From contig CAMWQD010000001.1 of NCBI GenBank assembly GCA_947176325.1, forward strand, positions 1 to 36,548: 36,548 nt of DNA, read 5' to 3'. Shown one piece after another: positions 3,291-36,548 of this stretch (positions within the stretch are counted from its first letter, which is position 1; each line of letters begins with the position of its first letter). The translations under genes and the position numbers were made by a program. The stretch comes from an uncultured Bacteroidales bacterium. Its GTDB lineage: Bacteria; Bacteroidota; Bacteroidia; Bacteroidales; P3. Below the pieces are notes generated by a model. It was not told the DNA's origin. It saw only the letters and a program-made list of their open reading frames with translations, and made no database searches.

Positions 3291-3818
3291 TCAAAGTCGG
3301 ATTGGGTCTGTATAAATCACATTGCTTCTGTGCAACGCACGGTCGTAGAGGTAGATGCCGTAACAAATCGTATTGTTTTCCAACATACTCGCCGTGATGG
3401 CGAAATCGTCCACTTTCCAGCGGATGAGGCCGCTGAGCGAATGGTTGGCGTTGACAGGTTCCATATAATGCAAGTGATAGTGGTAGGCTATGGGATGCCA
3501 TTCGCCCGTTGTGTCGGGCAGGTAGACGCTTTCGAGAAGGCTATCGGAAAGCACTTTGTATAATTGAAAATGAAGATTGTAGAGAGAGTCGCCGCCCCCT
3601 ATATCGCCGTCTCCGTCTTGAAAATAAAACTCCACTTCGAGGGAGGGTATGCTGTCTCCCGCCGCGGTGGGCGTGTAGGTGAGGATATTTTGACGAAATT
3701 CCAGATAGGGTTCTATGGGAAAGGTCTTCGGCTTGACGCAGGAAACCACGAGCGGGGCAAGCACGCAGAATGCCGCCAGCAAAGGCAATCTCAGAAAAAT
3801 GCGTACTTTTGGCGGCAT
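3291..3818 (-). CDS. Hypothetical lipoprotein with a DGDGDIG acidic motif, tightly coupled to mrdA
   Basis: The signal peptide MPPKVRIFLRLPLLAAFCVLAPLVVSC ends in a lipobox Cys. The stop codon lies 1 nt from the mrdA ATG. The start is placed at the internal ATG 3818 rather than 3866, because a TAAATTTG -7 box (3871-3878, minus) sits only 5 nt from the 3866 ATG. No recognisable family. Confidence 0.6.
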   Translation of the reverse strand: MPPKVRIFLRLPLLAAFCVLAPLVVSCVKPKTFPIEPYLEFRQNILTYTPTAAGDSIPSLEVEFYFQDGDGDIGGGDSLYNLHFQLYKVLSDSLLESVYLPDTTGEWHPIAYHYHLHYMEPVNANHSLSGLIRWKVDDFAITASMLENNTICYGIYLYDRALHRSNVIYTDPIRL

Positions 3819-3870
3819 AGTGTTCGGGGTTTGGGTTATGCGCCGCAGGGTATCCTGAGGCCGCAACCGA

Positions 3871-3878
3871 CAAATTTA
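3871..3878 (-). promoter_or_regulatory. Candidate Bacteroidetes -7 promoter element (TAAATTTG) for the lipoprotein-mrdA-rodA operon
   Basis: Exact match to the TAnnTTTG consensus on the minus strand, 53 nt upstream of the ATG at 3818, within the divergent intergenic region. Confidence 0.4.
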
Positions 3879-3884
3879 CAAAAA

Positions 3885-4916
3885 ATGCACACACAAGAGC
3901 AGTTAATTGCCCTTTCTTCAAAGATTTTCGAGATTCGGAACGAAGACGATTTCCGCAACCTTGCCTTGGCGTTGTTTCATCTTCATTACGAACAGAATTC
4001 TGTTTACCGTGAGTATGTGCAAGCGCTTGATTCTTCGTTTGATGCACATGAGGTGAAAACGCTCCGACAGATTCCCTTTCTGCCTATCGAGGTTTTTAAG
4101 ACGCGCAAGGTGTTTTTGGAGGGTATCGAAAGCGAACACTATTTTCTGAGTTCGGGAACCGGCTCGCAGGGAGCGGTGCGGAGTACGCATCAGATGGGCA
4201 GTCTGGCGCATTACCGCCGATGCTTTACGCGCGGATTTGAGCATTTTTTCGGCGATGTGCGCCGCTATGCGTTTTTCGCGCTCACGCCCGAACCCGCTTC
4301 ACAACCGCATTCCTCGCTGATTTATATGCTGCAAGGACTTATGGAGGAAAGCGGCCATCCCGAGAACGGTTTTTATCTGAACAAGGAAGATGAATTGGCC
4401 GAAAAGTTGCGCGCCTATATGCAGAACGGGGCTTCGCAAGCCGTGAAGCCTGTGCTTTTCGGGCTCAGTTATGCACTTTGGGACTTGGCCGAAAAATATC
4501 CCTTGGATTTGTCGCAGGCCTTGATTTTCGAGACGGGCGGCATGAAAGGCAAACGGCAGGAACTGCCCAAGGAGGAGTTTCACGCCATCTTGAAAAAAGC
4601 CTTCCGGGTGCCTGCCGTGCTTTCGGAATACGGTATGTGCGAACTCACCTCGCAAGCCTATATCACCGATACGGAATATCGTTTTTCCTGCCCTCCGTGG
4701 ATGCGCGTGATGATTCGCAAAACCCTCGACCCGCTGCAATACGAGAACTTCAACCGCATGGGCGGCATCAACATCATAGACCTCGGCAATCTCTATTCCT
4801 GCCCCTTCATCGCCACACAAGACTTAGGCATCCAATATCCCGACCTCTCTTTCGAAGTCAAGGGACGCTTCGCCCACAGCGATATACGGGGTTGTAACCT
4901 GATGATAGGAGAATAA
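3885..4916 (+). CDS. LuxE/PaaK-like acyl-protein synthetase (adenylate-forming enzyme), stand-alone
   Basis: The start is taken at ATG 3885 (MHTQEQLIALSSKIFEIRNEDDF...), because the upstream part of ORF 3564-4916 overlaps the divergent lipoprotein gene. It shows N-terminal LuxE-family architecture and an SSGTGSQG nucleotide-binding loop. About 343 aa. Confidence 0.6.
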   Translation: MHTQEQLIALSSKIFEIRNEDDFRNLALALFHLHYEQNSVYREYVQALDSSFDAHEVKTLRQIPFLPIEVFKTRKVFLEGIESEHYFLSSGTGSQGAVRSTHQMGSLAHYRRCFTRGFEHFFGDVRRYAFFALTPEPASQPHSSLIYMLQGLMEESGHPENGFYLNKEDELAEKLRAYMQNGASQAVKPVLFGLSYALWDLAEKYPLDLSQALIFETGGMKGKRQELPKEEFHAILKKAFRVPAVLSEYGMCELTSQAYITDTEYRFSCPPWMRVMIRKTLDPLQYENFNRMGGINIIDLGNLYSCPFIATQDLGIQYPDLSFEVKGRFAHSDIRGCNLMIGE

Positions 4917-6897: not shown

Positions 6898-8814
6898 TCA
6901 GCACGAGCGGACTTCCATTCGGCAAGCCTCGCAATCGAAACGCAATGCGAATTTATGGTTTGCCGAACGCAAAAACAAATCGCCCTTGAACTTGTCCGAC
7001 ACCTTGTCGCGCTTGAGGCATTGTCCCGTTTGGGCGCGGATGCAGTGTTTGCAGAGCATCAACGGCTCGTTGGGTTGCCGGCGGTGCTTCTCCATCTCCA
7101 GCTCGTAGGCAGGTTCCACCGACACTGCATCCGCGCCCGAATAAAGCCGCCGGGCGTAGCTGTTGGCACAGTTGGCGCGGTAGTCCAAAGACGGGGCGGG
7201 AACGGCAAGGTCTTTAACCACAGCCGAAACGGGCGTGGCCGCAACAACCGAGGCGGAGGGTCTATATCTTTCCTCCCGCAAAACATTCATCTTCTCCACC
7301 AAGTCGCGACGGACGCGGTTGAGCGTGGAAGCGGGCACAAAGAAAAATTCATCACCCTTGTATTCAAAACTTTCCAAGCGATAGGCCGTGCCTCCCAACT
7401 TGCCCGTCTGCGCGGCAAAATTGGCGGGCACCGCTTCGGGATTGCGGGCGGGCTGCACCTCGTCTTCGTTCAAAAACGCCTTCACCTCGTTGCCGTCTTC
7501 ATCCCTCCAATAAAAACATCTTTCCTTGGCATCGAACACGCCGTGCACGGCCAAAGTCCGCGAAAATGCAGCCGTCTGTAGGGTTTTGTCGAAAATCTTG
7601 TCGCGGTTGCGATAGAGAATCGCCCCCTCCGCAGGAAGCGATGCAGGATTTTGCGAAGGCGCCGCCATTTCCAAGCAAGAAAGATTCTTCTTTTTCTCCA
7701 CCCTTTCCACATGGCCGCCCTGCAAATCGCCACGCGCATCCACATAGCAGATTCCGTCGCCCGCCGAAAACTCGGCGTTTCCCTCCACCTGCAAATCCAA
7801 CCGCCAAAATCCCTCCCTGTTGCGTCGGAGTTCGGCCCTGCGCACCTTCCCCACCCTGCATCCCACGGCCTTAGGCGTTTCAAAAACCGCCCAATCCTCA
7901 CGCTTTCCCGACAAATTGAAAGAAGTGTATTCCCTATGAAAAGTTTTCTGCAAATCGGGCTGAAAATCGGTCTGCACCTCTCCCTGCGAGGCCTTGGCAT
8001 ATTGGGGAAAATTGCGCAAAACAGCATCCAAACGCTTGCGATACCAATATGTTACATTCTTCACATAATCCACCTCCTTCAAACGCCCTTCTATCTTGAG
8101 ACACGACACACCCGCACGCACCAAATCTTCCATATACGCATCGGCATTGAGGTCTTTCATGGAAAGCAGATAGCGGTTCCGCAGCAACACCTCCCCGCGC
8201 CCGTTAACCAAATCGTAGGGCAAGCGGCACGCCTGGCTGCACTCGCCCCGATTGCCGCTCCGCCCCGTGGTATAGCAACTCATATAGCACTGCCCGCTAT
8301 AACTTACGCACAACGCCCCATGCACAAAAGCCTCGGTTTCTATCTTCACCGCCTGCGAAATGGCCTCAATCTCGCGCAACGAAAGTTCGCGCGCCAAAAC
8401 CAAACGCTTAAAACCCAACGATTGCAGAAAAAGCGCTTTCTCCACACTGTCTATATGGCATTGGGTGCTGGCGTGAAGCTCGATAGGAGGCAAGCCCGCC
8501 TCCAACAATCCCAAATCCTGAATCAGCAGCGCATCCACGCCCATATTATAGGCCTGCCGCGCCAATTCCAAGGCCGCGGGCATTTCGTCTTCGTAAATTA
8601 AGGTGTTGAGCGTAAGAAACACACGGGCGGCGTAGCGGTGGGCATAACGCACCGTCTTTTCGATGTCCTGCAAGGAATTGGAAGCCCGCACCCGCGCACC
8701 GAAGGCCGGCCCGCCCATATACACGGCATCCGCACCGGCATCTATGGCCGCTTTCGCCACCTCAAAACCGGCGGCGGGAGCAAGAAGTTCCACTTTCTTC
8801 AACGTCTGCACCAT
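6898..8814 (-). CDS. U32-family peptidase-like protein, long form with C-terminal extension (RlhA/YdcP-like)
   Basis: Exact PROSITE-type U32 signature EAFVHGALCVSYSGQCYMS. The N-terminus ELLAPAAG...GADAVYMGGPAFGAR and the roughly 640-aa length match the long YdcP/RlhA architecture. The C-terminus is Cys-rich (CKHCIRAQTGQC...CEAC). The ORF-track start at 8823 is a TTG lying inside a -7 box, so the first ATG at 8814 (MVQTLKK) is used. Confidence 0.8.
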   Translation of the reverse strand: MVQTLKKVELLAPAAGFEVAKAAIDAGADAVYMGGPAFGARVRASNSLQDIEKTVRYAHRYAARVFLTLNTLIYEDEMPAALELARQAYNMGVDALLIQDLGLLEAGLPPIELHASTQCHIDSVEKALFLQSLGFKRLVLARELSLREIEAISQAVKIETEAFVHGALCVSYSGQCYMSCYTTGRSGNRGECSQACRLPYDLVNGRGEVLLRNRYLLSMKDLNADAYMEDLVRAGVSCLKIEGRLKEVDYVKNVTYWYRKRLDAVLRNFPQYAKASQGEVQTDFQPDLQKTFHREYTSFNLSGKREDWAVFETPKAVGCRVGKVRRAELRRNREGFWRLDLQVEGNAEFSAGDGICYVDARGDLQGGHVERVEKKKNLSCLEMAAPSQNPASLPAEGAILYRNRDKIFDKTLQTAAFSRTLAVHGVFDAKERCFYWRDEDGNEVKAFLNEDEVQPARNPEAVPANFAAQTGKLGGTAYRLESFEYKGDEFFFVPASTLNRVRRDLVEKMNVLREERYRPSASVVAATPVSAVVKDLAVPAPSLDYRANCANSYARRLYSGADAVSVEPAYELEMEKHRRQPNEPLMLCKHCIRAQTGQCLKRDKVSDKFKGDLFLRSANHKFALRFDCEACRMEVRSC

Positions 8815-10489: not shown

Positions 10490-11512
10490 TTAGAACCTCG
10501 GACAAGGAATAGGCTCGATGCGACGGGCGCCCATGCTCTGACGCTTGCAGGGAATACGGAAGCCCAACGCAATTTCGTGGCTGCCCCCGCTGCGGGCGGT
10601 GAGTTTCGACACCGTGAGGTCGTAGCTGTAGGAAATGTGAATGCCCTTGAAATCGGCACCCAACATAAATATCACCGCATCGGGATTGCTGAAGCTCTGA
10701 CGGAACCACACCCCGAAAACAACCGGCCACATCTGCGCATAGAGCCCGTAGTTGAGTTCGGTGAACTTACCCTGTTGAATATAAACGATATTGGGCGAGA
10801 GGTAAGGCTCCTTCTCGTCGCGGATTTCGTTATAGGTGGGTTTGAAATAAATCTTGCCGCCCGCCTGTGCGCTATAACGGATGCTCAAGCGGCTCGGCCC
10901 CATGAATCCCACATCGGGACGGATGAGATGCACAGCCGAAACCCCTACATAAAAGTTCTCGCCGTAGAACGTAGCCCCCACGCCCACATCGCCGTAGTGA
11001 CGGCTCAGAGGAGTGTTCGGTATGTTTTCGGCGGTAGGACGGCCTTGCACCAAACCTAAATAGGGGTCGTATTGGTCGGGGAAGGTGAGCGATTCCCAAT
11101 TGACATAGCGGTTGGCGTAGGAACCCTGCACGGCCAAGGTAAGAAACAGTTTATTCGAAAGTTGCGCACGGAACGCATACATAAAGGCCGCCGAAATCTC
11201 GCGGAAGGTTCCGCCGCCTTGAAAATCGGCATTCACATAGGCGCCTATGCCGCCGTGCAACGCTCTGATATATTGGTCGTAGGAAACCGTCGCCAACGAA
11301 AATCCGCCGCCCACGTTGGGCCACTGGTTGCGGTAAGCCGCCGAGATACGCCCGCAGCCCGAGGTGCCGGCAAAGGCGGGATTGAGATAAAGAGGATTGG
11401 AGTAAAGTTGAGAAAGGTGCATATCCTGCGCATGGGCGAAAGCCGAACACGCCGCCAAGCACAAAACGGTGCAAACACGCTTGATTATCCGAAAGGAATG
11501 CATACCTGTCAT
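10490..11512 (-). CDS. PorP/SprF-family type IX secretion system outer-membrane protein
   Basis: 340 aa with a signal peptide ending AFAHAQ, followed by the family hallmark DMHLSQLYSNPLYLNPAFAG. The beta-barrel-like alternating pattern continues to a C-terminal ...CPRF. Confidence 0.8.
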   Translation of the reverse strand: MTGMHSFRIIKRVCTVLCLAACSAFAHAQDMHLSQLYSNPLYLNPAFAGTSGCGRISAAYRNQWPNVGGGFSLATVSYDQYIRALHGGIGAYVNADFQGGGTFREISAAFMYAFRAQLSNKLFLTLAVQGSYANRYVNWESLTFPDQYDPYLGLVQGRPTAENIPNTPLSRHYGDVGVGATFYGENFYVGVSAVHLIRPDVGFMGPSRLSIRYSAQAGGKIYFKPTYNEIRDEKEPYLSPNIVYIQQGKFTELNYGLYAQMWPVVFGVWFRQSFSNPDAVIFMLGADFKGIHISYSYDLTVSKLTARSGGSHEIALGFRIPCKRQSMGARRIEPIPCPRF

Positions 11513-11548
11513 CTTTCTTTATCCGGCCGATTATTCAGCCAAAGGTGG

Positions 11549-11556
11549 CAAAGATA
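11549..11556 (-). promoter_or_regulatory. Candidate -7 promoter element (TATCTTTG) for porP/sprF
   Basis: Exact TAnnTTTG match on the minus strand, 36 nt upstream of ATG 11512. Confidence 0.35.
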
Positions 11557-11577
11557 ATATTTTTTCGTATCTTCGCG

Positions 11578-11585
11578 TACTTTTG
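11578..11585 (+). promoter_or_regulatory. Candidate -7 promoter element (TACTTTTG) for porV-ispF
   Basis: Exact TAnnTTTG match on the plus strand, 86 nt upstream of the porV ATG at 11672. It lies back-to-back with the porP box. Confidence 0.35.
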
Positions 11586-11671
11586 CTCACCAAAAGATTT
11601 TGCCGATGAATGAAAGAAACGGTACTTTTTAACCTTAGGTTGTGCAAACACACCTTTAAAACTATTTTGGA

Positions 11672-13442: not shown

Positions 13443-15278
13443 TTAGTCGGCCTTGTCCGTCAGAAAGGGCGGGTTGGACGAAAACAGGCTTCCGTCTCTG
13501 CCGATGCTGGTGGTGCTCACCTCCGATACATCCGAAGGCACCACCGGCGTCAAATCCAAGTTCTGCCGTTGGTAGGCCGGTATGGATTCTATTTCGCGCA
13601 GACCTTGTTGAGTCTTGATTTTCTGCGACATCTGACGCAAGTGCATCATCCTTTCGGCCGTGGCCGCATAGCGTTCCCGAATGGCATTGGTGGGCTGCAC
13701 CTGTTCGGAGGCTTCCATAACCGTTGTCACAGTTTCCTGATGCATCGTTTCGGAGCCCATTTCCTGTTGCGCCTCCGTGTGGATTTCCATCGTGAAGCCT
13801 TCTTCCACCTCCACGGTTTCGGACTGCTCCTGTTCGCTCATCGTTACCTCGGCGGTTTCTTCCACGGCGGCAACTTCTTGCTCGGTGGCAATGGACTCTA
13901 CGTTGGCAAAGATATCAATGTCGTTCATCCACAGTTCGGATTCGGCTTTCACTTCCTCGATAAGAGGGTCTTCCGCCACCGTGGGTTCCGATACTGTCAT
14001 AGCCGGCGCTTCGGCGGGAGCCGCCTTGAGTTCGCTTACCTGCGCGGAGGGAGCTTCCACCTGTGCGGAGGAAACTTCTCCGTCGAAACTCAATATGCCC
14101 ACCACTTCTTTCTTTTCGGGTTCCTTCGCTTCCGTCTGCGGGATTTCAGCCACGGGCGCAGGCGCGGGCGTGGATGCGGACATAATGGGTGCAGGTGCCG
14201 GAGCAACGGCGGGGGCGGTGTAGGTCTTTTCGTTGAGATTGATAATGGTCTTTTCGCGGATACCCATCACCTTCTTTTCTTCAAAGCCCGTTGCAATCAG
14301 GGTGATGTTAAGGTTTTCGCCCGCCGACGCATCCTCGCCCGCGCCCCAAATCATATCGGCTTCGGTCTCGGTGCGCTGCGCAATCGACTTGGTAACCACA
14401 TCTATTTCGTCCATATTCAGCTGCGCATCGGGGCCGTAGCTAAAATAGAGCAACACGTTCTTGGAGCCCTTGATGCTGTTGTCGTTGAGCAGAGGCGAAT
14501 TCATGGCCGCTTCGATGGCTTCCTTGGCGCGGTTCTCGCCCGAAGCCGAGCCGTAGCCCATAATGGCGGCGCCGCTGTTGTGCATCACCGTGTTCACATC
14601 CTTAAAGTCTATCTGCACGTAGGAAGTAACCGTGATGATTTCGGAAATGCCTTTGGCCGCGGTGGTCAGAATGTCGTCGGCCTTGGCGAAGGCTTCCTTC
14701 AGGCTCATCTTGCCGAACTGACGCAGTTGGTCGTTGTTGATGATAAGAATGGAATCGACAATCTTGCGCAATTCGGAAACACCCGCCCGCGCTTGTTCCA
14801 CACGCTTGCGGCCTTCGAAGCTGAAGGGCATGGTGACGATAGCCACCGTGAGGATTTTGGTAACCTCATCGCCCACCAATTCTATTTCCTTGGCAATCGA
14901 AGCCACTACGGGCGTGGCTCCCGTGCCGGTGCCGCCGCCCATTCCCGCAGTGAGGAAGAGCATTTTGGTTCCCGTAAGAGCCTCCTTTATTTCGTCGTGT
15001 TTCTCCACCGCCGCATCGCGCGCCACTTGCGGCACGTTGCCGGCTCCCAAACCTTTTCCCAACTGAATTTTATTGGGAACGGGGCTGGCTTCCAAGGCTT
15101 GCGCATCGGTGTTGCAGATAATGAAATCCACATCCTTGATGCCTTGCTGGAACATGTGGTTCACCGCATTGCTGCCACCGCCGCCAACTCCCATCACTTT
15201 GATATAGGAGGATTGGTTCTTGGGAAGCACAAAATTCAAAAACTCCCCTTCGTGGTTCTGATTCATCAATTCTTCCAT
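13443..15278 (-). CDS. ftsZ: Cell division GTPase FtsZ with a long acidic C-terminal tail
   Basis: Tubulin signature motifs GVGGGGSNAV and GMGGGTGTGATP are present. An IPAYQRQ peptide and a terminal NPPFLTDKAD lie near the C-terminus. The ORF-track start at 15299 is a TTG just 6 nt from a -7 box, so the first ATG at 15278 (MEELMNQ) is used; ATG 15266 is also possible. Confidence 0.9.
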   Translation of the reverse strand: MEELMNQNHEGEFLNFVLPKNQSSYIKVMGVGGGGSNAVNHMFQQGIKDVDFIICNTDAQALEASPVPNKIQLGKGLGAGNVPQVARDAAVEKHDEIKEALTGTKMLFLTAGMGGGTGTGATPVVASIAKEIELVGDEVTKILTVAIVTMPFSFEGRKRVEQARAGVSELRKIVDSILIINNDQLRQFGKMSLKEAFAKADDILTTAAKGISEIITVTSYVQIDFKDVNTVMHNSGAAIMGYGSASGENRAKEAIEAAMNSPLLNDNSIKGSKNVLLYFSYGPDAQLNMDEIDVVTKSIAQRTETEADMIWGAGEDASAGENLNITLIATGFEEKKVMGIREKTIINLNEKTYTAPAVAPAPAPIMSASTPAPAPVAEIPQTEAKEPEKKEVVGILSFDGEVSSAQVEAPSAQVSELKAAPAEAPAMTVSEPTVAEDPLIEEVKAESELWMNDIDIFANVESIATEQEVAAVEETAEVTMSEQEQSETVEVEEGFTMEIHTEAQQEMGSETMHQETVTTVMEASEQVQPTNAIRERYAATAERMMHLRQMSQKIKTQQGLREIESIPAYQRQNLDLTPVVPSDVSEVSTTSIGRDGSLFSSNPPFLTDKAD

Positions 15279-15304
15279 GTCAAACAATATTTCTAGCAAT
15301 CTCC

Positions 15305-17649: not shown

Positions 17650-19020
17650 TTACGCTTTGTCTTCTTTGTCAAAAAAACGAATCAAGGGTTCCACGCTGCG
17701 GTCGATATTGCCGGCTCCCATAGTCACGAACAACAGACCCGATTTTCCGTCGGCACGTTGCGTGCGCTTCTCCACCCATGCGGGAATGTCCTCGCAGTTG
17801 CAATAGCTCACTTCCTTGCCTTGAATCTTATCTCCGATGAGGCGCGAAGTGACGCCCTCTATCGGTTGTTCGCGGGCGGGATAGATGTCGGCCAGACAAA
17901 GTTCGTCGGCTTCGGACAGGCTCGAGGCGAAGGTATCGCACAGGTCGCGGGTGCGCGTGTAGAGGTGGGGTTGGAAAATCACCACCAGTCTATAGTCGGG
18001 ATAACATTCGCGCAGGGCGCTGATGCTGGCTTCTATCTCGGCGGGGTGATGGGCGTAGTCGTCGTAGTATTGCCATTTGTTGCCTTTGTGACAATATTCC
18101 AGACGGCGTTTCACGCCTTTGAATCCGGGCAGGAGGGCACGTATCTTGGCCGGCCCCACGCCCATTTCGAGCGCGATGCTGATAGCGGCCACGGCGTTTT
18201 CGATATTGTGACGGCCGGGGAGCACCATTCTGAGGTTTTCGATACGGCCGCGCGGCCCCACATAGGTGAAGATATAGGCACCGTTCTCCACGCGTATGTT
18301 CTCGGCATAGGCACGTGCCTTGCCGTCTTTTTCGAGGCCGTAGTAGAAACGGGGCTGAAAGGGCAGATCCAAGGCGGAGTCGGCGATGAAGCGGTCGGAC
18401 TGCCGCATGAAACGCACGTAGGCCGCCCGCATGTTCTCCAAGGTTCCGTATACGTCCATGTGGTCGGGATCCCAGGAGGTAACCACCGAGAAATAGGGGT
18501 AGAGCTGCCAGAACGAATGGTCGTATTCGTCGGCTTCGGTCACCATAATCTGACTCTTGGCATCGTGGTGATAGTTGCCTCCCATATTAATGGAAAGGCC
18601 GCCGAGAATGGCGTTGCAACCTATGCTCGACTGCAGGAGGTAGGCGATGAGCGAGGAGGTGGTGGTTTTTCCGTGCGTGCCGGCCACGGCCACGGTACGG
18701 TAGAGGCGGCACAATACACCTAAAATCTCCGCCCGCTTGTAGCAACGCAATCCGCGTTGACGGATGCTCTCCCACTCGCCGTGGTCGGCGGGAATGGCGG
18801 GCGTATAGATTACCGTCGACACATCCTGCGGAATCAGGGCGGGGTCTTCGGTGTAGTGAATCACAGCACCGGCTTCTTCCAACTTCTTGGTAAGCGGGGT
18901 GCAGACACGGTCGTAGCCGCTCACCTTGCAACCTTGCTGCAAGTAGTGAAAGGCCAAGGCACTCATGCCTATGCCGCCTATTCCCAAGAAATAGGGGTGT
19001 GTGATACGGTCGGCTTTCAT
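17650..19020 (-). CDS. murC: UDP-N-acetylmuramate--L-alanine ligase
   Basis: 456 aa with N-terminal FLGIGGIGMSALA, the Mur ligase P-loop AGTHGKTTTSS, and a C-terminal DDYAHHPAEI motif. Its start overlaps the murG stop by 4 nt. Confidence 0.95.
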   Translation of the reverse strand: MKADRITHPYFLGIGGIGMSALAFHYLQQGCKVSGYDRVCTPLTKKLEEAGAVIHYTEDPALIPQDVSTVIYTPAIPADHGEWESIRQRGLRCYKRAEILGVLCRLYRTVAVAGTHGKTTTSSLIAYLLQSSIGCNAILGGLSINMGGNYHHDAKSQIMVTEADEYDHSFWQLYPYFSVVTSWDPDHMDVYGTLENMRAAYVRFMRQSDRFIADSALDLPFQPRFYYGLEKDGKARAYAENIRVENGAYIFTYVGPRGRIENLRMVLPGRHNIENAVAAISIALEMGVGPAKIRALLPGFKGVKRRLEYCHKGNKWQYYDDYAHHPAEIEASISALRECYPDYRLVVIFQPHLYTRTRDLCDTFASSLSEADELCLADIYPAREQPIEGVTSRLIGDKIQGKEVSYCNCEDIPAWVEKRTQRADGKSGLLFVTMGAGNIDRSVEPLIRFFDKEDKA

Positions 19021-20207: not shown

Positions 20208-21389
20208 TCAGGCGTTTCCCAAAGCTTCCGCCTCGCGCTTCTCCCGCTCGTTCACCGCATGTGCCACACTTTGTATCATGCCCAGCGCCATGCCGGTAAA
20301 CAAACTCGAAGTTCCGCCCATGCTCACAAACGGCAAAGGCTGCCCCGTAACGGGGAAAAATCCCACGGCCACCCCCATATTCACCAAAGCCTGCAAGGTG
20401 AGCATAAAGGTGAGCCCCATTACCAAACAACTTCCGAACAAACCTTTGCATCGCTTGGCGATATTCATTCCCCGCCGCAACAACCAAAGGTAGAGCACCA
20501 ATATCACCAATCCTCCCGCCACGCCATATTCTTCTATAATCAAGGCATATACATAGTCGGAATAGGGATGCGGCAGAAAGTTCCGCTGGGTGCTGTTTCC
20601 GGGGCCTTTCCCGAGAACCCTTCCGCTGGCCACGGCAATTTTGGCTTGGTCGGCCTGATAGTTGCTCGAATTGTTTTCCACATTCGCATCCGAACCCGCA
20701 AAATTCTCGATACGGTGCTTCCATGTGGAAAAACGGCCGGGAAGCTTGTTTTCGGGCGGCAGGAAAAGTATGCCCACAAAAAGCACCAGCGCCGCCATTC
20801 CCACGCCCACCGTAGCCCACAGACGCTTCTGCGGAACACCACCCACCACCATGAGGATGAAGCAGGTGAGCGTAAGAAGCATAGCCGTGGAAAGGTTGTC
20901 GAAAAATATCAGCAAGATAACGGGCAATGCAAATATCAACAGCCGCCAATAGGTGCTTTTTTCGGTAATGACGCTTTGCCTTATCGTGAGCTGACGCGAC
21001 AAAAAGGCCACCAACACCACCTTGGCGAACTCGGACGGCTGGAACGAAAAGCCCAAGATACGCACCCAACGGTTGGCGCCGTTGATTTCGCCCAACATGA
21101 GCGCATAGACAAGCAGCACAATGACAATAGGATACGCAAGCACCGAAAGACGGGCGAAGCGGGTGTATTTGATGCGGTGAAAACAGAACATCACCACCCA
21201 GCTCACCAAGAGAAGCCCTCCGTGGCGCAACACATAATAGGCCACATGCCCGCTATGGTAGCGATATGCCAAAAGCCCCGTGGCGCTGTAAATAGCCGCC
21301 ATCGAGACAAGGGAAAGCAAGACCATGACAGTCCAGATGCCGCTGTCGCCTTTAAAATACTTTCCCAAAAATTTGGCAATCTCTCTCAT
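20208..21389 (-). CDS. ftsW: SEDS-family lipid II flippase/peptidoglycan polymerase FtsW
   Basis: 393 aa polytopic membrane protein with FQPSEFAKV and GQPLPFVSMGGTS motifs. It sits in the dcw cluster between murD and murG. Confidence 0.9.
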   Translation of the reverse strand: MREIAKFLGKYFKGDSGIWTVMVLLSLVSMAAIYSATGLLAYRYHSGHVAYYVLRHGGLLLVSWVVMFCFHRIKYTRFARLSVLAYPIVIVLLVYALMLGEINGANRWVRILGFSFQPSEFAKVVLVAFLSRQLTIRQSVITEKSTYWRLLIFALPVILLIFFDNLSTAMLLTLTCFILMVVGGVPQKRLWATVGVGMAALVLFVGILFLPPENKLPGRFSTWKHRIENFAGSDANVENNSSNYQADQAKIAVASGRVLGKGPGNSTQRNFLPHPYSDYVYALIIEEYGVAGGLVILVLYLWLLRRGMNIAKRCKGLFGSCLVMGLTFMLTLQALVNMGVAVGFFPVTGQPLPFVSMGGTSSLFTGMALGMIQSVAHAVNEREKREAEALGNA

Positions 21390-21407
21390 CGCGCTGCACT
21401 AAAAAAA

Positions 21408-21962
21408 TTACAATTCGCAAACGGCACGCTTAAACTGCATGCCCTTGTCCTGATAGCTCTCGAACAAATCGAAGCTGGGGCAAGCCGGCGAAAGCAACAC
21501 CACATCGCCTTCCTCGGCCAGCAGATAGGCCGCCTGCACGGCATGGGGCATGGTGTCGGTCTGAATGATATTCGAAACCACATCGCCGAAAGTTTCCGTG
21601 ATAGCGCTGTTGTCCTTGCCCAGACAAACGATATGCTTCACTTTCTTTCCCACCAGATTCCGCATGGAAGAGAAATCAATATCGTCGGTCTTTCCGCCGG
21701 CAATCCACACCACGGGACGGGTCATGTTTTCCAAGGCGAACCACGTGGAATTTACGTTGCTCGCTTTGGCATCGTCGATATATTCCACTCCCCGCACCTT
21801 GGCCACGAATTCCAAACGGTGATCCACCTGACGGAAATCCTGAAAACTTTCCTGTATCACCTTCTTACGCAAGTCGCGGATATGCGTGGCCACCGATTCG
21901 GCCATGGAGCGGGAAACGGTGCCTTGCTTGGCCAATGTCTCAATACTGAATTTTGCGTTCAT
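21408..21962 (-). CDS. murD: N-terminally truncated MurD (UDP-N-acetylmuramoylalanine--D-glutamate ligase), C-terminal domain only; possible pseudogene
   Basis: The 184-aa ATG-initiated ORF matches only MurD domain 3: VDHRLEFV, DDAKASNVNST (compare NDSKATN), WIAGGKTDD, and VVLLSPACPSFDLFESYQDKGMQF. The Rossmann GxGxxG and Mur ligase GxxGKT P-loop domains are absent. Only 604 bp separate the mraY stop from the ftsW start. Confidence 0.8.
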   Translation of the reverse strand: MNAKFSIETLAKQGTVSRSMAESVATHIRDLRKKVIQESFQDFRQVDHRLEFVAKVRGVEYIDDAKASNVNSTWFALENMTRPVVWIAGGKTDDIDFSSMRNLVGKKVKHIVCLGKDNSAITETFGDVVSNIIQTDTMPHAVQAAYLLAEEGDVVLLSPACPSFDLFESYQDKGMQFKRAVCEL

Positions 21963-21992
21963 ATCGTGTATTCTTTTTCTCGTTTGTTATGA

Positions 21993-23246
21993 TTATCGGA
22001 GTTTCAAGGTTACCAAGGTGATAACGGCCAAAAGGATGCTCACGATAAAGAAGCGCATCACAATCTTGGGCTCCGAAATGCCTTTCTTTTGGTAATGGTG
22101 ATGAAGGGGCGACATCAGGAAGATGCGCTTGCCTTCGCCGAAACGTTTTTTGGTGTATTTGAAATAGGTAGTCTGCATAATCACAGACAGGCTTTCCATT
22201 AAAAAGATGCCGCAGAGCACGGGCAGGAGCAATTCCTTGCGGATGAGCAGCGCATAGACGGCGATGATGCCGCCGAGGGTAAGGCTTCCCGTATCGCCCA
22301 TGAAGATGCGGGCGGGATAGGTGTTATACCAAAGGAATCCGATTGTGGCACCCACGAAGGCGGCGATGAAAATAGTGAGCTCGCCCACATTCGGAATGTA
22401 CATGATGTTGAGATATTCGGAAAAGATGATGTTTCCCGAAATCCACGAAAGCACGGCCAAGGTAGCGCCGATAATGGCCGACGTGCCGGTGGCCAGGCCG
22501 TCGATGCCGTCGGTGAGGTTGCAGCCGTTCGACACCGCCGTCACAACAAGAATCACCACCAATACAAAGAAAATCCATGTGTATTTTCCCCAACCCGTAT
22601 GAATGGCCTCCATAATGGCGGTATAGTCGAGTTCGTTGTTCTTGACGAAAGGAATGGTGGTCTTCATCGACTTTTCGGTGGCGGCCGTAAGCGTTTCTTC
22701 GGCTTCTTCGTATTGTTCGGCATCGAGCACATTGTAGTTCTCCACGCAAACTTCGGCCACGTTTTTCTGCGACACCGTGATGTCGGGATGAAAACACATC
22801 ACCAAACCCACAAAAAGCCCCAGCCCCACTTGTCCTATCACCTTGAACTTGCCTTTAAGCCCTTGTTTGTTGTGTTTGAACACCTTTATATAGTCGTCCA
22901 TAAAGCCCATGGTGCCGAGCCATACGGTGGTGATTATCATAAGCCACACATACACATTGTTGAGCTTGCAGAGCAAAAGCACGGGAATGAGAATAGACAC
23001 GATGATGATAAGCCCGCCCATCGTAGGGGTGCCTTCTTTCTCTTTCTGTCCTTGAAGACCGAGGTCGCGGACCGTTTCGCCTATCTGCTTGCGGTGCAGG
23101 AAAGCCATTACTTTCTTGCCCCACACCATGGAGATGAAGAGCGAAAGCACAATGGCCGCGGCCGCACGGAAAGAGATGTATTGAAATACGCCCGCTCCCG
23201 GCAGATTGAAATTTTCGTGTAGGTAATTGAATAAGTAATACAACAT
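21993..23246 (-). CDS. mraY: Phospho-N-acetylmuramoyl-pentapeptide transferase
   Basis: 417 aa, about 10 TM segments. Motifs [25 protein letters not shown] and SPLHHHY are present. Confidence 0.95.
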
Positions 23247-23257
23247 GGGCTTATGTT

Positions 23258-24709
23258 TTACAAATATTTGGTTAACATTTCCCTATCGTCGAAGTGGTGC
23301 TTCACACCCTTTATTTCCTGATAGGGTTCGTGTCCTTTTCCCGCCACCAAAATCACGTCCTTGTCCTGCGCCAGCATACAGGCGGTTTTGATGGCCTGCT
23401 CGCGGTCGGGCAGCACCAAAACCTGCTCTTTCTGCGCGGGAGAAAGACCGGCGAGCATTTGGTCGAGAATGTCCTGCGGGTCTTCGAAGCGGGGATTGTC
23501 GGAAGTGAAAATCACTTTTCCCGCATAACGACAGGCGATACGCGCCATTTGAGGACGTTTCCCTGCATCGCGGTTTCCGCCGCAACCCACCACGCAGATT
23601 AAATTCTGCTCGGGCAGGATAAGGGAGGAAAGCGTATCGAGCACATTTTCCAAGGCATCGGGGGTGTGGGCATAGTCCACCACGCCCGTTTTGCCGGAAG
23701 AAACGGAGGCAATGGTTTGAAAACGGCCGGGGGCTTCCTCGAGCGAACTCATGGCGGCCAACACTTCGTCGGAAGCAAATCCGAGACTTACGGCGGTGGC
23801 GTAGATGGCCGTGAGGTTATAGGCGTTGAAACGCCCCACCAAACGCATATACACGTCTTTGCGGTCTATTTCCAAATGCAGTCCCTGCAAGGAGTCTTCG
23901 ATAATCTTGCACGAAAAATCGGCGGGCATCCGCAAGGAATAGGTGAGTTTGCGCGCGGGCGTGTTCTGCAACATCACCATACCGTTTTTGTCGTCGGCGT
24001 TGGTGAGGGCGAAAGCCTCGGCGGGAAGGGCGTCGAAAAAGGCCTTCTTGGCTTTGATATAGGCTTCGAAGGTTTTGTGATAGTCTAAGTGGTCGCGCGT
24101 GATATTGCTGAAAATGCCCCCCGTGAATTCCAAGCCGGCGATACGGTTCTGCACAATGGCGTGCGAGCTCACTTCCATAAAGGCATATTGACAGCCCGCA
24201 TCCACCATTTGCCGCAGGAGGGCGTTGATTTGGAGAGGGTCGCCGGTGGTGTGCGTGGAGGGAACCACGCGGTCGCCGATGCGGTTTTCGATGGTGGAGA
24301 GCAAGCCGGCTTCGTAGCCGAGGGCGCGCATCAAACGATAGAGAAGGGTAACGGTGGTGGTTTTTCCGTTGGTGCCGGTAATGCCCACCAGTTTGAGGGA
24401 GCGGGAGGGATGACCGTAGAAGGCGCAGGCCATGAATCCGAGGGCGCGGCTGCTGTCGGCCACTTGGATATAGCACACATCGGGCGAAAGCTGCCGCGGA
24501 AGTTCCTCGCAAACGACAGCAGCCGCGCCCTGTTGCACCGCCGTGTCTATATACGAGTGTCCGTCTACGCTGGTTCCGCGGACGGCAAAGAACACGCCGC
24601 CCTTTTCCGCCTTGCGGGAATCCTGCGTAAGCGCACTTATCTCGGTCTGAAGCGACCCCACGGTCTGCTTCACGCCGCATTCCTTACTCAACAGATCCTC
24701 TATTTTCAT
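23258..24709 (-). CDS. murE: UDP-N-acetylmuramoyl-L-alanyl-D-glutamate--2,6-diaminopimelate ligase
   Basis: 483 aa with P-loop [12 protein letters not shown]. The DNPR motif ([11 protein letters not shown]) indicates meso-DAP specificity. It is in the canonical dcw position. Confidence 0.95.
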
Positions 24710-29174: not shown

Positions 29175-30032
29175 ATGCTGAGTTTCACCATTTCCGAACG
29201 CACCATAGACGTGGAGCGGCTGATTGCCGAGAAAGCCCCCTCCGCCTACAAGAAGATAAAGTGGCTCATTCCGTGGCTCCGCAAGATTCTTCACGAAGAC
29301 GAAGTGAACGCCTTTTTATATAAGGAGCGAAACAAGGTGGGGGTGGATTTCGCCACGGCCATTCTACAGGATTTTGAATGCGAGGTGACGATGCGGGGAC
29401 AAGAGAACCTCGACCCCTCGGGCCGCTACCTTTTCTGCGCCAATCATCCCTTGGGCGGCTTGGACGGCATGGCGTTCCTGAGCCGTGTGGGTCAGCTCCG
29501 CCCCGACGTGGTCTTTCCGGTAAACGATATGCTCTTGGCGCTGCCTCCTTTCGAACCTGTTTTTCTGCCTATCAGCAAGTTGAAGAAAAACACCGAAAAC
29601 CGCCGCCATCTGGACGAAGCCTTCAAGAGCGACCGCACCTTGTTATACTTTCCCGCCGGCCTGTGCTCGCGCAAGCAGAAACACGGCGTGATTGCCGACA
29701 CCGAATGGAAAAAGACCTTCATCACCCAGGCACGCAATACTTTTCGGGATGTGGTTCCCGTGCATATTTCGGGCAGGAACTCCAATTTCTTCTACAACCT
29801 CGCCCGTCTGCGTACCCGCTTGGGTATCAAAGTGAATATCGAACAGATTTTCTTGGTGAACGAGATGTTCAAACTCCGAAATCAGAAGATTTGTTTAACT
29901 TTGGGCAAACCTATTCCTTGCTCGGTGTTCGACAAAAGCCGCAGCGACAAGGAATGGGCGGCTTTGGTTCGCGAACACGTCTACAAACTGCCCCACGACC
30001 CACAGGCGGTGTTCGCACCTTTTAATGTTTAG
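29175..30032 (+). CDS. Lysophospholipid/PlsC-family O-acyltransferase (GlsA/OlsA-like, N-acyl amino acid lipid synthesis)
   Basis: The start is taken at ATG 29175 (MLSFTISERTIDV...), since the ORF-track start at 29022 is a GTG within the promoter region. An acyltransferase catalytic block FCANHPLGGLDG and FPAGLCSR are present. It lies 5 nt upstream of a GNAT/OlsB-like partner gene. Confidence 0.65.
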   Translation: MLSFTISERTIDVERLIAEKAPSAYKKIKWLIPWLRKILHEDEVNAFLYKERNKVGVDFATAILQDFECEVTMRGQENLDPSGRYLFCANHPLGGLDGMAFLSRVGQLRPDVVFPVNDMLLALPPFEPVFLPISKLKKNTENRRHLDEAFKSDRTLLYFPAGLCSRKQKHGVIADTEWKKTFITQARNTFRDVVPVHISGRNSNFFYNLARLRTRLGIKVNIEQIFLVNEMFKLRNQKICLTLGKPIPCSVFDKSRSDKEWAALVREHVYKLPHDPQAVFAPFNV

Positions 30033-30037
30033 ATTAT

Positions 30038-30988
30038 ATGGAACCTATCATACCTCCCGTTGCAAGGGAAAAACTCAAGGACGAACTCACGTCCGACAAG
30101 TTCCTGCGCTACACCAACTACGGCGACCGTATGGTGTTCATCACCACCGCACACGATTCGCCCTCGGTGATGCAGGAGCTGGGCCGTCTGCGAGAGGAGG
30201 CGTTCCGCTCGGAAGGCGGAGGTACGGGAAAAAGCGCCGACATAGACGAATTCGACACCATGCCCAACCCCTACAAACAGTTGGTGGTGTGGGATCCTGT
30301 GGACGAAGAGATTGTGGGCGGCTATCGGTTTATAGAAGGCAACCGCGTTTCGTTCGACGCAACGGGCGCGCCCCTGCTCTCCACTACCGAAATCTTCAAG
30401 ATTTCACCCCGCTTCATCAAGGAATACCTGCCGCAGACCATCGAGTTGGGACGCAGCTTCGTGCAACCCAAATACCAATCTTCGCGCAGCGGCATTTTCT
30501 CTCTCGACAATCTTTGGGACGGCTTGGGCGGCTTGGTGACGCTCAACGAAAGTTGGATGAAGTATTTCTTCGGCAAGGTGACCATGTATACCGCCTTCAA
30601 TCCCGAAGCGCGCGACACTCTATTATATTATGTGTCGAAATACTACAAGGATCACGATAATTTAGTGGTGCCCATCAATCCGATTGTGCCCGTCACGCCC
30701 GAAGATAAATTGGAGGCGCTTTTCAAGGGCATGGAGCTGGAGGAAGCCTATCGCACCGCGGGAAAACGCATCCGTGAATTGGGTGAGAATATCCCGCCCC
30801 TGTTCAATTCGTATCTCAAACTCTCGCCCCTGATGCGCAGTTTCGGCACTTGTGTCAATCCGCATTTCGGAGGCGTGGAGGAAACGGGCATCTTAATCCG
30901 CGTGGACGAGGTGTATGAAACCAAAAAGGAAAGACATATTCCTCTCCGCCTGAGCGATGTGCAGAAGCCGAAGGAAAAACACGACTAA
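30038..30988 (+). CDS. GNAT-family (hemolysin-like / OlsB-GlsB-like) N-acyltransferase
   Basis: 316 aa. The segment LGRLREEAFRSEGGGTGKSADIDEFD...QLVVWDPVDEEIVGGYRF is typical of the Acetyltransf_5 N-acyl amino acid synthases of Bacteroidetes. It is paired with a PlsC-type acyltransferase. Confidence 0.65.
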   Translation: MEPIIPPVAREKLKDELTSDKFLRYTNYGDRMVFITTAHDSPSVMQELGRLREEAFRSEGGGTGKSADIDEFDTMPNPYKQLVVWDPVDEEIVGGYRFIEGNRVSFDATGAPLLSTTEIFKISPRFIKEYLPQTIELGRSFVQPKYQSSRSGIFSLDNLWDGLGGLVTLNESWMKYFFGKVTMYTAFNPEARDTLLYYVSKYYKDHDNLVVPINPIVPVTPEDKLEALFKGMELEEAYRTAGKRIRELGENIPPLFNSYLKLSPLMRSFGTCVNPHFGGVEETGILIRVDEVYETKKERHIPLRLSDVQKPKEKHD

Positions 30989-34623: not shown

Positions 34624-35353
34624 ATCGTGGAACCCGTGGCACGGCTGCCACAAGATTAGCGCGGGCTGCAAGCACTGCTATGTGTATCGGGAAGATGCCG
34701 CTTTCGGCACGGAAATTCCCTCCGACCAAGTGCGCAAGACCTCATCGTTCCGCCTGCCGCTCAAGAAAGACCGTCATAAGAATTTCAAATATCCTTCCGG
34801 AACCATGTTCGGGCTGTGCTTCACTTCCGATTTGCTCATTGAGGAAGCCGACCCTTGGCGCGAGGAAATCTGGGAAATCATCCGCCAACGCCGCGACTGC
34901 ACGTTCTTTTTCTTTACCAAACGCATCGACCGCCTGGCCGCCTGCCTGCCCGCCGATTGGGGCGAGGGCTACGAACACGTGGCGGTGGGCTGCACGGTAG
35001 AGAACCAAGACCGCGCCGACTACCGTCTGCCCATATTCCTTTCCCTGCCGATACGCCACCGCCTGTTGATAGTCGCCCCCATGTTGGAACGTATCGACCT
35101 ACGCCCCTACCTCAACCCGCAACACATCGAAGAAGTCTCGGCCAGCGGCGAATCGGGCAAATACGCCCGCACCTTGGATTACAACTGGATACTCGACCTC
35201 CGCGCCCAATGTATCGAAGCGCAGGTGCCGTTCTGTTTTCACCAAACCGGTTCCTATTTTCTCAAAGACGGCAAGACCTATCACATTCCCCGCGAAAAGC
35301 AAATCTCCCAAGCCCGCAAAGCCGGCATAGACACGCGCGAGCCGAGGCTATAG
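34616..35353 (+). CDS. DUF5131 (phage Gp37/Gp68) family protein with an N-terminal three-Cys motif
   Basis: 245 aa. The family-typical N-terminus is WNPWHGCHKISAGCKHCY (C11-x6-C18-x2-C21), followed by FFFFTKR and VAPMLE segments. The ATG overlaps the queD stop by 8 nt (ATGACTGA). Confidence 0.7.
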   Translation: MTESWNPWHGCHKISAGCKHCYVYREDAAFGTEIPSDQVRKTSSFRLPLKKDRHKNFKYPSGTMFGLCFTSDLLIEEADPWREEIWEIIRQRRDCTFFFFTKRIDRLAACLPADWGEGYEHVAVGCTVENQDRADYRLPIFLSLPIRHRLLIVAPMLERIDLRPYLNPQHIEEVSASGESGKYARTLDYNWILDLRAQCIEAQVPFCFHQTGSYFLKDGKTYHIPREKQISQARKAGIDTREPRL

Positions 35354-35404
35354 ACTGTCCCCGTTTTTTTTGTATTTTCGCGCGCTTTTTAAAAACAAAC
35401 TGTT

Positions 35405-36451
35405 ATGTTGTTTCACGTTTATGGAGACTTGGCTATCTACAAATGGATTGCCATGTTCGCAGTCCTTGTAGGACTGATTCTTCTCAATGAATTCGCCCGA
35501 AAGACCAAATTCGGCGGAATCGTAACCTTCTTTGCCGTGCCCGTGCTGTTGACGGCCTATTTCGTGACGATTTACATCGCCGCCGCCTTGGGTGCCGACT
35601 GGGCGCTGCACAACCAGACCTATCTTTACATGAACGGCTGGTTCCACTACGCCAAACTGTATGCGGCGCTGACGGGCTGTATCGGCTTCATGATGATCAA
35701 GTACGGCTGGGGCATCGGCAAACAGAAATGGTTCAAGCCCTTCCCGTTTGTCATCGTGGCCATCAACATCCTTATCGCCGTGGCTTCCGATTTCGAAACG
35801 GCCTACAAGGGTTGGTACAGCTGGTTCCTCTCGCCCGAACAGGTATGGCTCTACGGCGGCTGGCACAACATCATGAACGGTGTGGCCGGTCTGCTCAACA
35901 TCTTCTGTATGACCGCCTGGTGGAGCGTTTATTCCTCCAAGGACAAGACCGATATGTTGTGGCCCGATATGACGTGGGTGTATATTGTGGTTTATGATGT
36001 ATGGAACTTCGCCTACACCTACAACTGTCTGCCCACCCACTCTTGGTTCTGCGGTATCGCGCTTCTGCTGGCTCCCACGATTGCGGCTGTATGCTGGAAC
36101 CGGGGCGGCTGGATTCAGAACCGCGCCAATACGCTTGCCATCTGGTGTATGTTCGCACAGGTATTCCCGCTCTTCCAAGTCACCTTCCCCAACGGCCTCC
36201 AAGTTTACAAGTGGGCTACCCTTCCCACCCTCTATGCCGACGGCACGCTCAACGGCATTGTGGAAGGCGGCAGCGTCAACGCCAATCCTACGGCCATGAC
36301 CGTTGTCAGCGCCCTCGCCTTGGTGTTGAACGCCGTTGCCCTCGGCTACATCATCTGCGTATCGAAGAAACGTCACATCAACCCCTACAAGCAAGACGTA
36401 TTCGTTAACCAGAAATACTACAAAGACGCCGCCGCGCGCATCGACGCCTAA
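35405..36451 (+). CDS. Hypothetical polytopic inner-membrane protein (about 9 TM, Trp-rich)
   Basis: 348-aa ATG-initiated ORF with about 9 hydrophobic spans and many Trp/Tyr residues at the predicted interfaces. It is followed by a strong terminator. I do not recognise a family with confidence. Confidence 0.6.
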   Translation: MLFHVYGDLAIYKWIAMFAVLVGLILLNEFARKTKFGGIVTFFAVPVLLTAYFVTIYIAAALGADWALHNQTYLYMNGWFHYAKLYAALTGCIGFMMIKYGWGIGKQKWFKPFPFVIVAINILIAVASDFETAYKGWYSWFLSPEQVWLYGGWHNIMNGVAGLLNIFCMTAWWSVYSSKDKTDMLWPDMTWVYIVVYDVWNFAYTYNCLPTHSWFCGIALLLAPTIAAVCWNRGGWIQNRANTLAIWCMFAQVFPLFQVTFPNGLQVYKWATLPTLYADGTLNGIVEGGSVNANPTAMTVVSALALVLNAVALGYIICVSKKRHINPYKQDVFVNQKYYKDAAARIDA

Positions 36452-36477
36452 GCGCCTGTCTTTGGTATGATATAGAA

Positions 36478-36509
36478 GCGGGTGGACTTTTCGTCTGCCC
36501 GCTTTTTTT
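36478..36509 (+). terminator. Rho-independent terminator
   Basis: A 10-bp stem GCGGGTGGAC / GTCTGCCCGC (including two G-U pairs) with loop TTTTC is followed by TTTTTTT. It starts 27 nt after the stop at 36451. Confidence 0.8.
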
Positions 36510-36548
36510 ATGGAACAAGAAAACTTTAACTTGTCCTGCACTTGTCCT

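Follow-up and report, generated by a model that had tools for sequence, protein, structure and literature searches.

A stand-alone MurD domain 3 protein occupies the murD slot of the dcw cluster in a group of Bacteroidales

MurD is regarded as an antibiotic target that is essential, present in single copy and invariably located at the same position of the dcw operon. In the dcw cluster of an uncultured Bacteroidales bacterium, the murD slot was found to contain a 184-aa open reading frame (ORF) made up of MurD domain 3 and a short relic of domain 2. Given that domain 1 and the P-loop domain are missing, the encoded protein is predicted to lack autonomous ligase activity and to be incapable of ligation on its own, and comparison with related loci indicates that this short-form state is old and recurrent. 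The best explanation for these observations, and one that we regard as reasonably probable, is that the ORF encodes a non-catalytic stand-alone domain 3 protein and that a complete murD is located elsewhere in the genome; we infer both this role and the second gene.

The stretch of DNA analyzed here (the window) spans 36,548 nt. The ORF (21408..21962 including the stop codon, minus strand) starts with ATG and lies between mraY (21993..23246, minus strand; 417 aa), its upstream neighbour, and ftsW (20208..21389, minus strand; 393 aa), its downstream neighbour, both of which are full length according to Pfam. This is the usual position of murD in the Bacteroidota dcw cluster. The A-rich spacer following mraY (21963..21992, minus strand) comprises 30 nt, is too small for the missing domains and likely functions as the translation initiation region, while the spacer preceding ftsW (21390..21407, minus strand) comprises 18 nt, a tight operon packing. 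Two comparison genes in the window, murE (23258..24709, minus strand) and murC (17650..19020, minus strand), encode three Mur ligase domains each, with the P-loops GTNGKTTT and GTHGKTTT, respectively. The peptidoglycan machinery appears to be otherwise present, with rodA and PBP2 also encoded in the window. Searches of the whole 36.5-kb window, using tblastn with MurDs bearing the central domain and Pfam on the other window ORFs, did not detect any MurD N-terminal or central domain, and returned only weak cross-matches to murC and murE.

The initial annotation of this DNA had described a murD reduced to its C-terminal domain among twelve full-length dcw genes, and this description was accurate in every detail checked. 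The ORF map, Pfam and the domain annotation of an identical context (L001) confirmed normal lengths for the twelve remaining genes, and the ORF map left just one 184-aa ORF, flanked by the 30-nt and 18-nt spacers, in the gap between mraY and ftsW. The motifs HRLEFV, DDAKASN and SPACPSFDLF were all found in the ORF as quoted, both P-loops were present in MurC and MurE, and the reported absence of the Rossmann and P-loop domains from the murD slot was borne out by Pfam, which identified Mur_ligase_C alone in the slot and neither missing domain elsewhere in the window. The alignment also placed the FSIETLAKQG N-terminus at the end of the central domain, and the proposal that about 260 codons had been lost cleanly, rather than by decay and with no remnants in the spacer, was supported. 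The homology of the product to MurD domain 3, on which the annotation rested, was upheld by profile, PDB sequence and structure matches.

Several other features of the window were recorded. The FtsZ gene (13443..15299, minus strand) encodes an unusually long protein of 618 aa; FtsZ lengths were 596-661 aa in loci L009-L013 versus 505-536 aa in L015-L020, which implies a predicted long C-terminal extension or linker in the window clade. A 450-aa ORF next to PBP2 and rodA (3564..4916, plus strand) presented a weak match to LuxE acyl-protein synthetase (27.6 bits, with a cut-off of 24.9). In the region 3291-4916 it overlaps minus-strand ORFs without a Pfam match, located where mreC and mreD would be expected, and the gene calls there are tentative. 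No Pfam match was obtained for two further ORFs of 397 aa (35348..36541, minus strand) and 211 aa (30025..30660, plus strand), the latter of which overlaps a GNAT-domain ORF (30038..30988) and may not be real.

Pfam detected only the Mur_ligase_C domain (PF02875) in the 184-aa ORF, at residues 48-161 (E 4.8e-13; 50.5 bits versus a gathering score of 28.4). Neither the UDP-MurNAc-binding domain (PF21799/PF21377) nor the central ATP-binding domain (PF08245) with its GxxGKT/S P-loop was detected in the ORF. The NCBIfam model for murD (TIGR01087) yielded 155.1 bits, below its curated cut-off of 211.95, and aligned only over profile positions 273-439 of 441. A phmmer search of the PDB with the 184-aa protein returned exclusively MurD matches, spanning chain residues ~291-447. 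In the AlphaFold model, for which 19 family members were used (mean pLDDT 77), residues 48-184 were confidently predicted and residues 1-47 were of low confidence (pLDDT 43-59). The model superimposed on MurD domain 3 (7u35 etc.) with an rmsd of 1.6-1.9 Å over 141-143 aligned columns, and the top 33 Foldseek matches were all MurD (TMq 0.62-0.70). Pfam, PDB search, AlphaFold and alignment hence assign residues 48-184 (21411..21821, minus strand) to the MurD domain 3 fold, and alignments identify residues 1-47 (21822..21962, minus strand) as a relic of the last MurD domain 2 helices and the linker. In this relic segment, the adenine-binding GxHNxYN motif is degenerate in the window protein (GTVSRSMAES).

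The same architecture was observed in related genomes. Eight contigs of NCBI and ENA assemblies, as well as a GTDB species representative (L021), encode the exact 184-aa protein, in each case flanked by mraY and ftsW. Among the matches listed by the protein search there were many relatives of 179-185 aa, down to ~51% identity; some of these short relatives were found on contigs of 288-471 kb, and one was seen on 121 contigs. The neighbourhoods inspected were those of the P0015, P0021, P0115 and P0064 loci and of eight GTDB species representatives, and short orthologues of 180-185 aa were found in the murD slot of all four loci and of L022-L026, L055 and L079. The comparison of synteny with relatives suggested in the initial annotation thus recovered the same order of mraY, short ORF and ftsW in related loci. 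The distance between the mraY stop codon and the short-gene ATG was 5-97 nt in all 12 short loci, and tblastn identified no MurD N-terminal plus central (N+M) homology within ±10 kb of these 12 short-form loci, returning only murC and murE cross-matches.

These observations bear directly on whether the mraY/murD junction could reflect an assembly collapse, a chimeric contig or a minority population variant. The low coverage of related contigs (~4-5x) and the metagenomic origin of all the data would be compatible with such an artefact, but several assemblies produced independently have the identical junction and protein, the architecture recurs in related species (51-78% identity) on contigs of up to 471 kb, and an artefact would not be expected to bear the signature of purifying selection described below. 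We therefore consider this explanation extremely improbable, and the assembly collapse or population variant listed among the options of the initial annotation is refuted by the recurrence of the same junction in independent assemblies and many related species.

According to record titles, the window's group comprises uncultured Bacteroidales of animal guts, such as Candidatus Pullibacteroides excrementavium. The P0064 lineage consists of Bacteroidales of the anaerobic digester type, and in this lineage, which also has a short MurD, murG and murC are fused into a single 866-aa ORF (L019:11769-14369; L020:10194-12794).

Selection on the short gene was assessed with the Nei-Gojobori method on two pairs of loci, the window versus L021 and L023 versus L026. 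The dN/dS of the short gene was 0.03 in the first pair (dS 0.30) and 0.10 in the second (dS 0.80), and the corresponding values were 0.05 and 0.05 for mraY, 0.03 and 0.11 for ftsW, and 0.07 and 0.11 for murE. Short ORFs remained intact, at 179-185 aa, across lineages whose MraY proteins are only 61-80% identical, and 35 alignment columns were invariant among 19 diverse short members. Initiation regions in the Bacteroidia make no use of Shine-Dalgarno sequences and depend instead on upstream adenines and low structure (PMC6847099), and the composition of the 21 nt upstream of 12 short-gene starts (56% A, 13% G) matches this expectation. These results indicate that the short gene is genuine and under strong purifying selection, like mraY, ftsW and murE. 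That it could instead be a decaying, functionless pseudogene remnant, preserved only by its location within an essential operon, might be argued from its faster evolution relative to the C-domain of intact MurD and from the loss of some functional residues. Nonetheless, a remnant of this kind should not maintain an intact ORF of constant length across lineages, a dN/dS of 0.03-0.10 rather than near 1 and 35 invariant columns among 19 members, nor should the ORF have been kept independently in several lineages, and we deem this possibility very unlikely.

The distribution of the short form was analyzed with a neighbour-joining tree of concatenated MraY and MurE sequences from 77 loci (100 bootstraps), a distance method applied to two adjacent genes. 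Short-form loci were monophyletic in none of the 100 bootstraps. The window group and L012 formed one clade in 100/100 bootstraps, L079 paired with the full-length locus L036 in 94/100, L015 paired with full-length Lentimicrobiaceae-like loci in 70/100, and L019 and L055 were placed separately with weak support. Since short loci were never monophyletic and the regaining of 260 codons in place is implausible, the most economical reading of this two-gene neighbour-joining tree is that at least three independent truncations took place in the Bacteroidales, all of them to the same methionine. The alignments likewise indicate that the short gene arose by loss of the first ~262 murD codons, up to a conserved internal methionine.

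All the genuine short ORFs begin at this methionine, which is conserved inside full-length Bacteroidota MurD (...FTMTLEELALQGRHNLYNSMAAG...), and gene callers restart at the same residue when a contig end or a frameshift interrupts a normal murD. Artefactual 182-aa entries can consequently mimic the real short form. A candidate split murD intermediate (P0108, in L017 and L018) was ruled out as an A10-run frameshift in a normal gene (L017:9925-9935); two apparent N+M-only MurDs (P0135 and P0137) turned out to be adjacent frameshifted halves in long-read assemblies (L103:6001-7330; L104:6001-7346); and a 287-aa candidate truncated MurD (P0027; L105:18-881) was discarded as cut by a contig end. 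Hence, all five of the contexts checked for '182-aa' or 'N+M-only' MurDs (L017, L018, L103, L104 and L105) were artefacts, and gene-calling errors probably account for most of the '182-aa MurD' database entries with a preserved G[KR]HN motif, a generalization based on three contexts. The true short clade was accordingly defined by a degenerate adenine motif (GTVSRSMAES-like, as opposed to G[KR]HNxYNSMAA) together with a verified context. A cluster look-up returned no names for the short proteins, and annotation pipelines name such proteins 'hypothetical' or 'MurD', which would lead to MurD being mis-scored in pathway reconstructions of these abundant uncultured bacteria.

To characterize change in domain 3 at the residue level, 29 short proteins were compared with 71 full-length MurDs of the Bacteroidota; residue numbers follow the E. 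coli structures (genomic position minus 1). In E. coli MurD structures, the region of H267, N268 and N271 binds adenine, and T321, K348, S415 and F422 bind D-Glu. Residues H301, R302, E304, D317, S415, F416 and D417 were invariant in both sets, and N322, invariant in the 71 full-length proteins, was kept in 28 of the 29 short ones. In contrast, K319 and T321 were invariant in 71/71 full-length proteins and varied among the short proteins, where K319 is replaced by M or R in some cases and T321 by S, C, Y or I. Similarly, the H267/N268/N271 positions, the GG-x-D-K348-G-N-D-Y loop, E423 and R425 were invariant or nearly so in the full-length set, whereas in the short proteins the adenine-region positions, E423 and R425 were variable and Lys348 was present in only 17 of 29. 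The window protein keeps HRLE, D317, K319, N322, S415-F-D and the aromatic residue at 422, and presents the changes T321S, K348D (GGKTDDIDF), A414P, E423Q and R425K. The A414P change is convergent, being found in the window clade, L055, P0064 and the stand-alone paralogues described below. Members of the short clade have K, Q or R in place of the buried leucine of 'LALQG' (L264), and P0115 shows the same change by convergence, as expected of a relic helix without a domain 2 to pack against.

The extent of change was graded among short proteins, from P0115, in which every motif of domain 3 is preserved, through L079, L055 and P0064 to the window group, where the changes are most extensive. When compared at the same MraY divergence, short proteins were 10-16 identity points more diverged than full-length MurD C-domains, and about as conserved as FtsW. 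Taken as a whole, the alignments indicate that the catalytic residues of domain 3 are no longer under fused-enzyme constraint in the short proteins. The decay of these residues and the faster divergence argue against a split canonical enzyme and in favour of a remodelled non-catalytic domain.

A split MurD, in which the 184-aa protein would act as a D-Glu-binding subunit in trans with a distant protein made of domains 1 and 2, would be in line with the invariance or near-invariance of the active-site-facing residues H301, R302, E304, D317, N322, S415 and D417 in short proteins, and with the intact and constrained murC and murE, which require the MurD step to occur. Yet the K319 and T321 positions and the K348 loop vary in short proteins, the adenine HN..N motif of the relic helix has been lost and its buried Leu replaced by Lys, Gln or Arg. 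The window and the ±10 kb around each of 12 short-form loci yielded no domain 1+2 partner, and every 'N+M-only' ORF checked was a frameshift artefact adjoining its own C-terminal part. A split would, moreover, have required repeated independent fission and relocation. We consider it improbable. For the option of a split or replaced enzyme put forward in the initial annotation, the decay seen in catalytic and D-Glu-binding residues accordingly speaks against the split.

The genomes could also lack a conventional MurD altogether, with the reaction performed by another enzyme, such as a non-homologous ligase or the domains of MurC or MurE with this domain 3 acting in trans, or made dispensable by peptidoglycan peptide salvage. 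The recurrent loss of the ligase, the lack of MurD N-terminal or central domains within ±10 kb of any short-form locus and the host association of several lineages, judging by record titles, could all be accommodated by such a replacement. Nevertheless, intact and constrained murC and murE make a bypass pointless, the MurC, MurE, MraY and FtsW proteins are of ordinary length with no extra domain, and the D-Glu-binding loop of the fragment has decayed. A documented alternative route, which comprises MurD2, a full-length MurD-like L-Glu ligase, and the MurL epimerase, occurs in some Proteobacteria and Actinobacteria, and the review describing it lists no Bacteroidota (PMC8788868). The likelihood of a replacement is in our estimation slim. 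The 184-aa ORF itself was ruled out as a MurD2, as it is not a full-length ligase.

With murC and murE intact and constrained, the MurD reaction must persist, and since the MurD step is known to be essential, a complete murD elsewhere in the genome is the expected source. MurD catalysis would then be provided by this gene, located beyond the window and the ±10 kb inspected around the short-form loci. All genomes with the short form are metagenome-assembled genomes (MAGs), and thousands of MurD matches exist at 55-65% identity; a relocated copy was not singled out among the best 120 listed per search. The 184-aa protein would be neither a ligase nor a ligase subunit. Its role would instead be non-catalytic, and the most plausible one is that of a binding partner or adaptor in the assembly of Mur enzymes, MraY and FtsW encoded in the same operon. 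The fragment, presumably co-transcribed with mraY and ftsW and remodelled on its ligand face, would work by binding, and its likely partners are enzymes of the cell wall and of division that lie near the membrane, or further Mur ligases. Among the options considered in the initial annotation, the one that fits best is a retained regulatory or scaffolding fragment together with a second murD at another location. It is also possible that the fragment acts as a sensor of D-Glu or UDP-MurNAc-peptides, or as a regulator of the relocated MurD, and the invariant H301, R302, E304, D317, N322 (28/29), S415 and D417 could mean that a ligand-binding or modified catalytic role persists.

Stand-alone domain 3 proteins were also identified next to intact murD genes. 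Eleven loci that contain a full-length murD additionally encode, directly downstream of it and before ftsW, one or two proteins of 160-190 aa with Mur_ligase_C as their only domain (L014:871-1431; L031:10568-11086; L034:10576-11145; L039:2673-3164; L040:10570-11142; L043:10568-11113; L053:10545-11027; L054:~7627-8112; L059:10566-11060; L068:~10563-11048; L093:10564-11082 and 11086-11610). These loci belong mostly to Flavobacteriales-like Bacteroidota, and the paralogues are plainly designated MurD where named, most entries being unnamed. Like the window protein, they keep the SPAC(P)S(Y/F)D...RG..FK signature and, mostly, HRLE, and carry A414P; they vary at K319 and T321, as the short proteins do, and also at N322. 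Unlike the window protein, they lie beside a full-length murD, start ~20 residues later, without the LAKQG...SMAES relic, and are much more divergent. In a tree of C-domains, they fell outside the short and full-length groups on long branches. The comparative evidence thus points to a free MurD domain 3 encoded beside ftsW as a repeated theme in the Bacteroidota.

The methionine at which all short genes begin was further examined within full-length murD. About 93-96% of full-length murD genes have this internal methionine (~codon 262 in the full-length genes of L027-L100, e.g. L046:9206-10543; equivalent to window positions 21950-21962). The seven codons that precede it show the lowest observed/expected third-position G in the gene (0.32; bootstrap 0.17-0.47; 68-72 genes), compared with 1.07 for all other in-frame murD methionine codons pooled, and this upstream window ranked first of 2,427 across murD, murE, murC, murG, mraY and ftsW (observed/expected G 0.37). 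The 21 nt upstream of the internal methionine contain 45% A and 8% G, versus 33% A and 23% G in the gene. The region is also the least structured of the murD mRNA, with a mean 50-nt folding energy of -1.7 to -2.8 versus -7.3 ± 2.0 kcal/mol, and fills the top 12 of 424 positions for low folding energy. An A-rich, G-poor and unstructured stretch shares the known features of Bacteroidia initiation regions (PMC6847099).

These signals raise the possibility, which we put forward tentatively and do not favour as the probable state, that murD is a nested two-product gene in the Bacteroidota, in which an internal start would yield a free domain 3 protein of ~20 kDa with a non-ligase role in the cell wall or division. 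The window lineage and at least two others would in that case have retained the nested gene alone once the ligase function had relocated, and some Flavobacteriales-like lineages would have duplicated the nested gene as a separate gene downstream of murD. The internal start, if real, would explain why truncations always end at this methionine and why the fragment has been retained, and would represent a nested gene inside a textbook enzyme. A loss of the internal methionine or of its start-like signature was looked for in paralogue-bearing genomes, and was not found.

The short MurD is a variant of a known enzyme family, and not a new kind of system. The window protein shares with the MurD ligase the homologous residues ~260-437, the domain 3 fold, the position between mraY and ftsW and the HRxE, D317, N322 and S415-x-D417 residues. 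It differs in the absence of domain 1 and nearly all of domain 2, in scoring below the equivalog cut-off and in its faster evolution, and neither the window protein nor the other short proteins conserve the adenine motif, T321 and the K348 loop. MurD has been reported to bind MurE-MurF with a KD of ~0.8 uM, and natural Mur chimeras include MurE-MurF, MurD-FtsW and MurG-MurC fusions (PMC10214165). In MurD-FtsW chimeras, the C-terminal end of MurD is coupled to FtsW, an arrangement that by analogy would fit an adaptor domain 3 encoded 18 nt before ftsW, and both the affinities among Mur proteins and the MurD-FtsW fusions are consistent with an adaptor role for domain 3 (PMC10214165). The chimeras are fusions, whereas the window gene is a reduction.

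Two further systems provide precedents, in principle only, for a Mur ligase domain in a binding or structural role: MurT of the MurT/GatD amidotransferase and the plant MurE-like subunit of the plastid RNA polymerase. The role of the plastid MurE-like subunit is non-catalytic. Unlike the window protein, these two proteins either retain the central domain or interact with different partners, and no sequence-specific relationship of the window protein to MurT or to the MurE-like subunit was found. Foldseek also returned weak matches (E ~1e-4) to two chains of the plastid-encoded RNA polymerase (8qma_O and 8ras_Q), which we presume may be its MurE-like subunit. No description of a truncated, split or domain-3-only MurD, in the Bacteroidales or otherwise, was found in the searchable literature.

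The lineages that keep only the last domain of MurD comprise both gut and environmental Bacteroidales, and MurD activity must be encoded in their genomes at an unusual location or in an unusual form. The recurrent and selected retention of domain 3 points to a role for this domain that is separable from catalysis, such as the coupling of Mur enzymes to MraY and FtsW.
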